Shown here in pieces: positions 34,475 through 36,621 of a stretch of 64,000 nt of DNA. Made by a program: the position numbers and the translations under genes. Numbering within the stretch: position 1 is the stretch's first letter; every line of letters begins with the position of its first letter. The notes under the pieces are model-generated. The model was not told the DNA's origin. It did no database searches and saw nothing but the letters and a program-made list of their open reading frames with translations. The stretch comes from Tricharina praecox (lineage: Eukaryota), in NCBI RefSeq assembly GCF_024521635.1, contig NW_026250420.1:434001-498000 (forward strand), in the 5' to 3' direction.

Positions 34475-36621
<2,147 letters not shown>

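Follow-up and report, generated by a model that had tools for sequence, protein, structure and literature searches.

The tail of histone H3 is a textbook case of near-total conservation, and lysines 18 and 23 within it are major acetylation sites. A locus in a 64-kb stretch of fungal DNA (the window) encodes an H3 in which the residues between these two lysines are different, and it raises the question of whether this is a genuine, inherited change in the main H3 of a group of fungi and, if so, what the altered tail might do.

The window appears to come from a member of the Pezizomycotina, and among named fungi a pezizomycete is its closest relative. This rough placement is based on the window's topoisomerase II gene (3647-8643, minus strand), whose domains (Toprim, gyrase B and topoisomerase IV A) are distributed over three long open frames. 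Among the matches listed for the exon at 6095-7426 (minus strand), the best reached 79%, Ascodesmis nigricans 75% and the others at most 71%. A tree of 23 proteins chosen by hand from the 120 listed matches, one of them from a named pezizomycete, grouped the window with Ascodesmis and two further proteins with support of 100/99.

The H3 gene and its tail

The H3 gene occupies positions 34503-35180 on the minus strand and consists of four exons encoding 136 residues, with a TAA stop codon at 34505-34503. Exon 1 (35163-35180) encodes MARTKQ, exon 2 (34922-35009) encodes residues 6 to 34 and the first base of codon 35, exon 3 (34638-34863) encodes the histone fold, and exon 4 (34503-34581) includes the stop codon. 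The three introns (153, 58 and 56 nt) all have GT..AG boundaries. The variant tail lies in exon 2, whose translation (35009-34923) reads K18-S-F-A-H-K23. The minus-strand codons TCC TTC GCC CAT at 34959-34970 specify S19, F20, A21 and H22 where the usual residues are Q, L, A and S or T, exactly as the preliminary description of this DNA had stated. The segment K18-Q-L-A-S/T-K23, which is nearly invariant in eukaryotic H3, is thus replaced here by K-S-F-A-H-K.

The remainder of the protein is ordinary. Q19S, L20F and S22H are the sole differences from the H3 of Exophiala dermatitidis (P0010), and both the core and the C-terminus are those of a canonical ascomycete H3. Exon 3 alone matched the Pfam Histone family (PF00125) with 99.5 bits (cut-off 26.4) and has 100% protein identity with seven of nine related loci from JGI metagenome contigs, which are described below. 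With 133 of 136 residues identical and three intact GT..AG introns, the gene is the otherwise ordinary ascomycete H3 that it had been taken for. A centromeric H3 (CenH3/CENP-A) was ruled out, as the tail and fold are canonical save for three residues, and a tblastn search with the H3 exons found no second H3 in the 64-kb window.

Counted from the genetic code, the change from Q-L-A-S to S-F-A-H requires at least five base substitutions (two for Q to S, one for L to F and two for S to H), with the reading frame kept. An origin of the TCC serine by slippage among three CGCAAGTCC repeats was considered and rejected, as the bases 3' of it match neither of the other copies. Judged by its sequence, the gene is a canonical H3 with a natural and conserved rewrite of residues 19-22, a rare change in a highly conserved segment.

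The gene is divergent from a canonical histone H4 gene (36176-36621, plus strand; exons 36176-36185, 36262-36399 and 36458-36621; 103 residues), in agreement with the preliminary description. The region between them (35181-36175) measures 995 bp from ATG to ATG. This arrangement is the one described for fungi in PMC10878826, where a typical genome has one H4 gene, divergent from an H3 gene. Downstream of H3 lies a gene with an ABC_ATPase domain (PF09818; 30943-32502, plus strand), which served as an anchor for synteny. An open frame at 49841-51253 (plus strand), some 15 kb away from the two histone genes, has a Cupin_8/JmjC match (117 bits) and may encode a hydroxylase or demethylase.

Related loci with phenylalanine at residue 20

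We searched JGI metagenome contigs with a pattern in which G12-K27 of the H3 tail were fixed, F20 was required, and residues 19, 21 and 22 were free. Nine loci were identified. Three of these carry the tail QFGS (L001, L002 and L005), two carry SFGH with threonine, not serine, after K27 (L004 and L009), and one carries SFSH (L006). The remaining tails are QFAN, in an intronless gene (L003), and RFAT, in a divergent H3-like protein of 144 residues (L007 and L008). A pattern coding for exactly SFAH had no matches in the JGI metagenome contigs, and the F20 pattern had none in prokaryote genome contigs.

The SFSH, SFGH and QFGS genes have the window's three intron positions and encode the same 136 residues except at positions 19, 21, 22 and 28. 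The L006 protein differs from the window's H3 at residue 21 alone, and those of L004 and L009 differ at residues 21 and 28. The change at residue 28, from serine to threonine, is a conservative one; S28A is described as lethal in Neurospora strains that lack a wild-type allele (PMC3248561).

At the codon level, the window differs from L006 by 24 synonymous changes and one amino-acid change, from L004 by 31 and two, from L001 by 39 and three, and from L003 by 37 and three. Among the synonymous differences is the codon for His22, which is CAT in the window and CAC in both L004 and L006. Across the five distinct H3 sequences, amino-acid differences are confined to residues 19, 21, 22, 28 and 32. 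As synonymous changes far exceed amino-acid changes, these codon comparisons indicate that the H3 gene is under strong purifying selection.

Similarity extends beyond the coding regions. In their introns and intergenic DNA, the window, L006 and L004 show 52-70% identity to one another and 36-53% to L001. The window and L004 can be aligned continuously over 2968 nt at 75.7%. On the ABC_ATPase side of H3, positions 32022-32807 of the window align with positions 1-777 of L006 at 75%, on the same side of H3 in both. The spacer that separates this anchor from H3, up to the 3' end of the gene, is longer in the window (32807-34456) than in L006 (777-1512) by about 0.9 kb. A divergent canonical H4 is present in five of the nine loci (L001, L002, L004, L005 and L006), and the window's H4 exons have 100% protein identity with all five. 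No H4 was seen at L003, L007 and L008, and the L009 contig stops before the position where H4 would lie.

The alignments indicate that the window, L006 and L004 are orthologous loci in at least three distinct, related fungi that have S19-F20-x-H22, and that the fungus with QFGS is more distant. We are nearly certain that the rewrite is real and common to a clade. The suggestion that it characterises a lineage, and not one contig, is borne out by the occurrence of SFAH, SFSH and SFGH at three distinct loci that can be aligned with one another. These three are the known S-F-x-H sequences, two of them from a narrow series of JGI data sets.

Ten blocks of 10-15 nt in the region between H3 and H4 are common to the window, L006 and L004, and they include TATA-like blocks on both sides. 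The TATA-like block CCCTATAAAACCCC (35292-35305, minus strand) lies 111 bp upstream of the start codon of H3 and is found in all three loci. The block AACCCTAACCAC (35357-35368, minus strand), 176 bp upstream of the same start codon, is found in these three and also in the QFGS locus L001, and may be a candidate binding site for a promoter factor. Read on the minus strand, AACCCTAACCAC resembles a telomere repeat.

QFGS and S-F-x-H genes co-occur in two JGI data sets, and we considered whether they might be paralogues of one genome. We judged this unlikely, as the S-F-x-H partner differs between the data sets. In the two shared data sets, the contigs of the two kinds measure 349,783 and 7,804 nt in one and 110,770 and 2,951 nt in the other (45-fold and 38-fold differences), and third-position GC is 0.60 in one kind of gene and 0.76 in the other. 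The differing pairings, contig sizes and third-position GC suggest that the two types of gene belong to different organisms.

The remaining F20 loci are of other kinds. The protein of L007 (1965-2399, plus strand), like that of L008, has 144 residues and reads PRK-RFAT-KAARKH, with histidine at the usual S28. Its identity to the H3 core is about 60%, it matches Pfam Histone with 126 bits, and exact copies occur in metagenome sources only. The intronless H3 of L003 (996-1406, plus strand) reads PRK-QFAN-K, has serine at residue 32 and is otherwise identical to the window's H3. There is no H4 within the 995 bp upstream of it, and the exact protein is on record from JGI/IMG only, on seven contigs.

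Drift, a variant copy or the main H3

Our best explanation, to which we give an even chance of being right, is that an H4-paired H3 of the highly expressed type underwent a rewrite from Q-L-A-S to S-F-x-H, which was then held by purifying selection. A first alternative accepts that this is the main H3 but treats the rewrite as effectively neutral: residues 19-22 would be the least constrained, S-F-x-H would have drifted and been inherited, and no new site would be in use. We consider this unlikely, if still to be taken seriously, and the frequency with which this segment changes in other H3 proteins bears on it from both sides.

A search of short fragments gave 1,595 matches (E <= 0.01) among 1,613 candidates, of which the best 120 were inspected. 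The tail open reading frame used as the query ranks SFAH-like fragments above canonical ones, and full-length single H3 proteins fall outside this ranking. Tails of the 120 listed fragments were QLAT (109), QLAS (7), ALAT (2), HLAT (1) and QFGS (1; P0246), and one protein had no match, so that 116 of these 120 tail matches, drawn from the best 120 of 1,595 fragments, read Q-L-A-S/T. In a search of representative proteins, the best 150 of 1,911 were taken and 122 newly fetched proteins were scored. Here the tails were QLAT (103), QLAS (16), QLAA (2), QLAN (1), QLAV (1) and ALAT (1), with no match in five proteins, and Q-L-A-S/T accounts for 119 of 124 tail matches listed. No tail with S19 or H22 was found in either the best 120 of 1,595 fragments or the best 150 of 1,911 representatives. 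In a search of longer proteins with the tail open reading frame, the 120 listed matches were mostly fused double-H3 models. Peptide strings of the SFAH type were absent from the full-text literature searched, a body of text that lies outside most subscription journals and bioRxiv supplements.

Two unusual proteins were noted during these searches. The first (P0024, from ENA; 511 residues on a contig of 10,640 nt) has a weak SET-domain match of 19.1 bits (below the cut-off, 22.4) and, after it, three copies resembling an H3 tail, K-ALAH-K, K-ALAY-K and K-ALAE-K, one of which is a natural copy with histidine at the position of residue 22. The second (P0245, from ENA; 114 residues) is a fragment of H3 with two tandem copies of the tail segment that begins at A7; these may reflect a genuine duplication or an artefact of assembly.

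Q-L-A-S/T is thus overwhelmingly the rule, which argues against neutral drift, and yet the segment is not immutable, as QFGS, QFAN, RFAT, ALAT, HLAT, QLAA, QLAN and QLAV are all natural tails in our scans. The route by which serine was reached is also an unlikely neutral path, because by the genetic code a change from glutamine (CAG) to serine (TCC) takes two adjacent substitutions and passes through either proline or a stop codon. Furthermore, S19, F20 and H22 have stayed fixed while 24 to 31 codons changed synonymously, although with three lineages this retention can also be simple descent. Other observations are more favourable to drift. Residue 21 is alanine, serine or glycine and residue 28 serine or threonine among close relatives, and yeast Q19A L20A mutants are described as viable (PMC3938757). 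The variable residue 21 and the T28 of one lineage fit relaxed constraint as well as they fit a new function. For the flanking lysines, an account of Neurospora reports that strains with substitutions at K18 and K23 are viable and grow more poorly (PMC3248561).

The codons also suggest an order for some of the changes. The alanine codon at residue 21 of the window, GCC, is one step from both serine (TCC) and glycine (GGC), and the S-F-x-H group may for this reason have started from SFAH, a proposal drawn from the genetic code. A change from serine (AGC) to histidine (CAC) can pass through asparagine (AAC), and asparagine is found at residue 22 of L003, making it a possible intermediate on this path.

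A second alternative is that the window gene is a specialised H3 variant and that the bulk chromatin is supplied by another H3 gene of the same genome, with the canonical Q-L-A-S. Some fungi, such as S. pombe and Candida albicans, have several H3 genes or a variant H3, which counts for this possibility, as does the fact that our search for copies spanned 64 kb only. Against it, the variant tail occurs in an H4-paired H3 in all four of the distinct intron-bearing lineages (SFAH, SFSH, SFGH and QFGS), the promoter blocks are conserved, the core is letter-for-letter canonical, and the codon bias is that of a histone gene. The bias is strong, with an effective number of codons of 33.6 in H3 and 26.2 in H4, compared with 44.3-58.4 in eight other exons of the window, bearing in mind that short genes have lower values. 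Neurospora, the model filamentous ascomycete, is described as having a single H3 gene (PMC3248561). We regard a specialised variant as quite unlikely, and the window gene is probably the main H3 of these fungi.

Sequencing runs also contain words of this gene. Its sampled 31-letter words were present at a fraction of 0.97 in one run and 0.59 in another sample of the same study, and runs of two further organisms contained 0.58 and 0.44 of them. Two RNA-labelled runs from the study of the first run contained 0.33 and 0.22, fractions that count shared words and not alignments.

Finally, an assembly, sequencing or chimera artefact can be dismissed: the change comprises at least five in-frame substitutions within 12 nt, as had been argued against a base-call error, S-F-x-H recurs at distinct orthologous loci in separately assembled contigs of related but distinct fungi, which excludes an assembly error, and the second sample of the same study contains the fraction of unaligned words given above.

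Reading of the new tail and comparison with known systems

If the S-F-x-H rewrite has been held by selection, any effect would lie in the reading of the tail, since the nucleosome core is unchanged. The rewrite would alter how the module from K18 to K23 is read. In particular, H22 would replace the hydroxyl of S22 or T22 that adjoins K23, and S19 would be placed beside the acetylation site K18.

The creation of a third R-K-S tripeptide, proposed in the preliminary description, can be read directly in exon 2 as R17-K18-S19. Its codons, CGC AAG TCC, are the same as those of the R-K-S at K9 and at K27. The motif recognised by Aurora/Ipl1 kinases is given as [R/K]x[S/T] followed by a hydrophobic residue (PMC3967068), and R17-K18-S19-F20 matches it in full, as a match of sequence only. 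S10 and S28 are succeeded by threonine and alanine respectively, and S19 by phenylalanine. Because R-K-S-F matches the Aurora motif, a phosphorylatable S19, which could form a phospho/acetyl switch with K18, would be the likeliest new property of this tail. That S19 is in fact phosphorylated is a tentative suggestion. The tails QFGS and QFAN have F20 without S19, which shows that R-K-S is not needed for F20 to persist.

The same tripeptide had led to the idea that K18 could act as a decoy for enzymes that recognise K9. The R-K-S is present, but its context weakens the comparison. For Neurospora DIM-5, activity in vitro is described as lost with R8A or G12P and as much lower with S10A or T11A (PMC3248561). 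At the positions equivalent to R8, S10, T11 and G12, the window has R, S, F and A (two of four matching) and L004 has R, S, F and G (three of four). Mimicry of K9 is made less plausible by this, as DIM-5 also needs T11 and G12 after the serine, and the equivalent residues in the window are F and A. Relative to the A-R-K-S of K9-S10 and K27-S28, the window shares R-K-S and gains an Aurora motif through F20, but has proline instead of alanine before the arginine, and F-A after the serine (F-G or F-S in its relatives) instead of T-G or A-P.

Taken to its furthest, the change could mean that, in a clade of soil or root fungi, the K18-K23 module of the sole bulk H3 has been re-engineered, with the third R-K-S as a kinase-controlled switch and with co-adapted writers and readers. 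We think this improbable. If it were true, these fungi would be a natural experiment in which the tail code gained a regulated site while the rest of it remained frozen.

The rewritten residues also overlap a known site of tail clipping, and it had been proposed that clipping could change. Yeast H3 is described as clipped after A21, with clipping lowered by Q19A L20A (PMC3938757), and for cathepsin L the residue L20 is described as occupying a hydrophobic S2 pocket that needs a hydrophobic residue, with indifference to Q19 (PMC3105313). F20 would preserve the hydrophobic side chain on which tail-clipping proteases rely, which makes a loss of clipping less plausible. By analogy with these enzymes, a tail with F20 and a small residue 21 is probably still cleavable. 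Compared with the clipping site Q19-L20-A21|T22 of yeast Prb1 and mouse cathepsin L, the hydrophobic residue 20 and small residue 21 (A, S or G) are kept, whereas Q19 is lost, leucine is replaced by phenylalanine, and histidine follows the cut.

The linker between K18 and K23 has been rewritten and kept while the other 132-133 residues are untouched, which provides a natural test of what it contributes to acetylation, clipping, kinase access and the binding of readers. In these fungi, antibodies raised for K18-QLAT/S-K23 would fail, as would peptide lists for mass spectrometry that were built on it. The system for single-gene replacement of H3 in Neurospora exists for testing the three substitutions, and the significance of the locus would rise sharply if the gene proved to be the only H3 and S19 proved to be modified.

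Among known histones, the closest comparison is with the canonical H3 of the Pezizomycotina, such as hH3 of Neurospora crassa and hhtA of Aspergillus nidulans, represented in our comparison by that of Exophiala dermatitidis. Like these, the window's H3 keeps K4, R8-K9-S10, K14, K18, K23, K27-S28 and K36, as well as the divergent H4. Unlike these, it has Q19S, L20F and S22H, while its relatives have serine or glycine at residue 21 and, in one lineage, threonine at residue 28. The variant H3 of Candida albicans likewise departs from a canonical fungal H3 at a few residues. That variant coexists with canonical copies and differs at other positions, whereas the change described here lies in the H4-paired gene and at residues 19-22.
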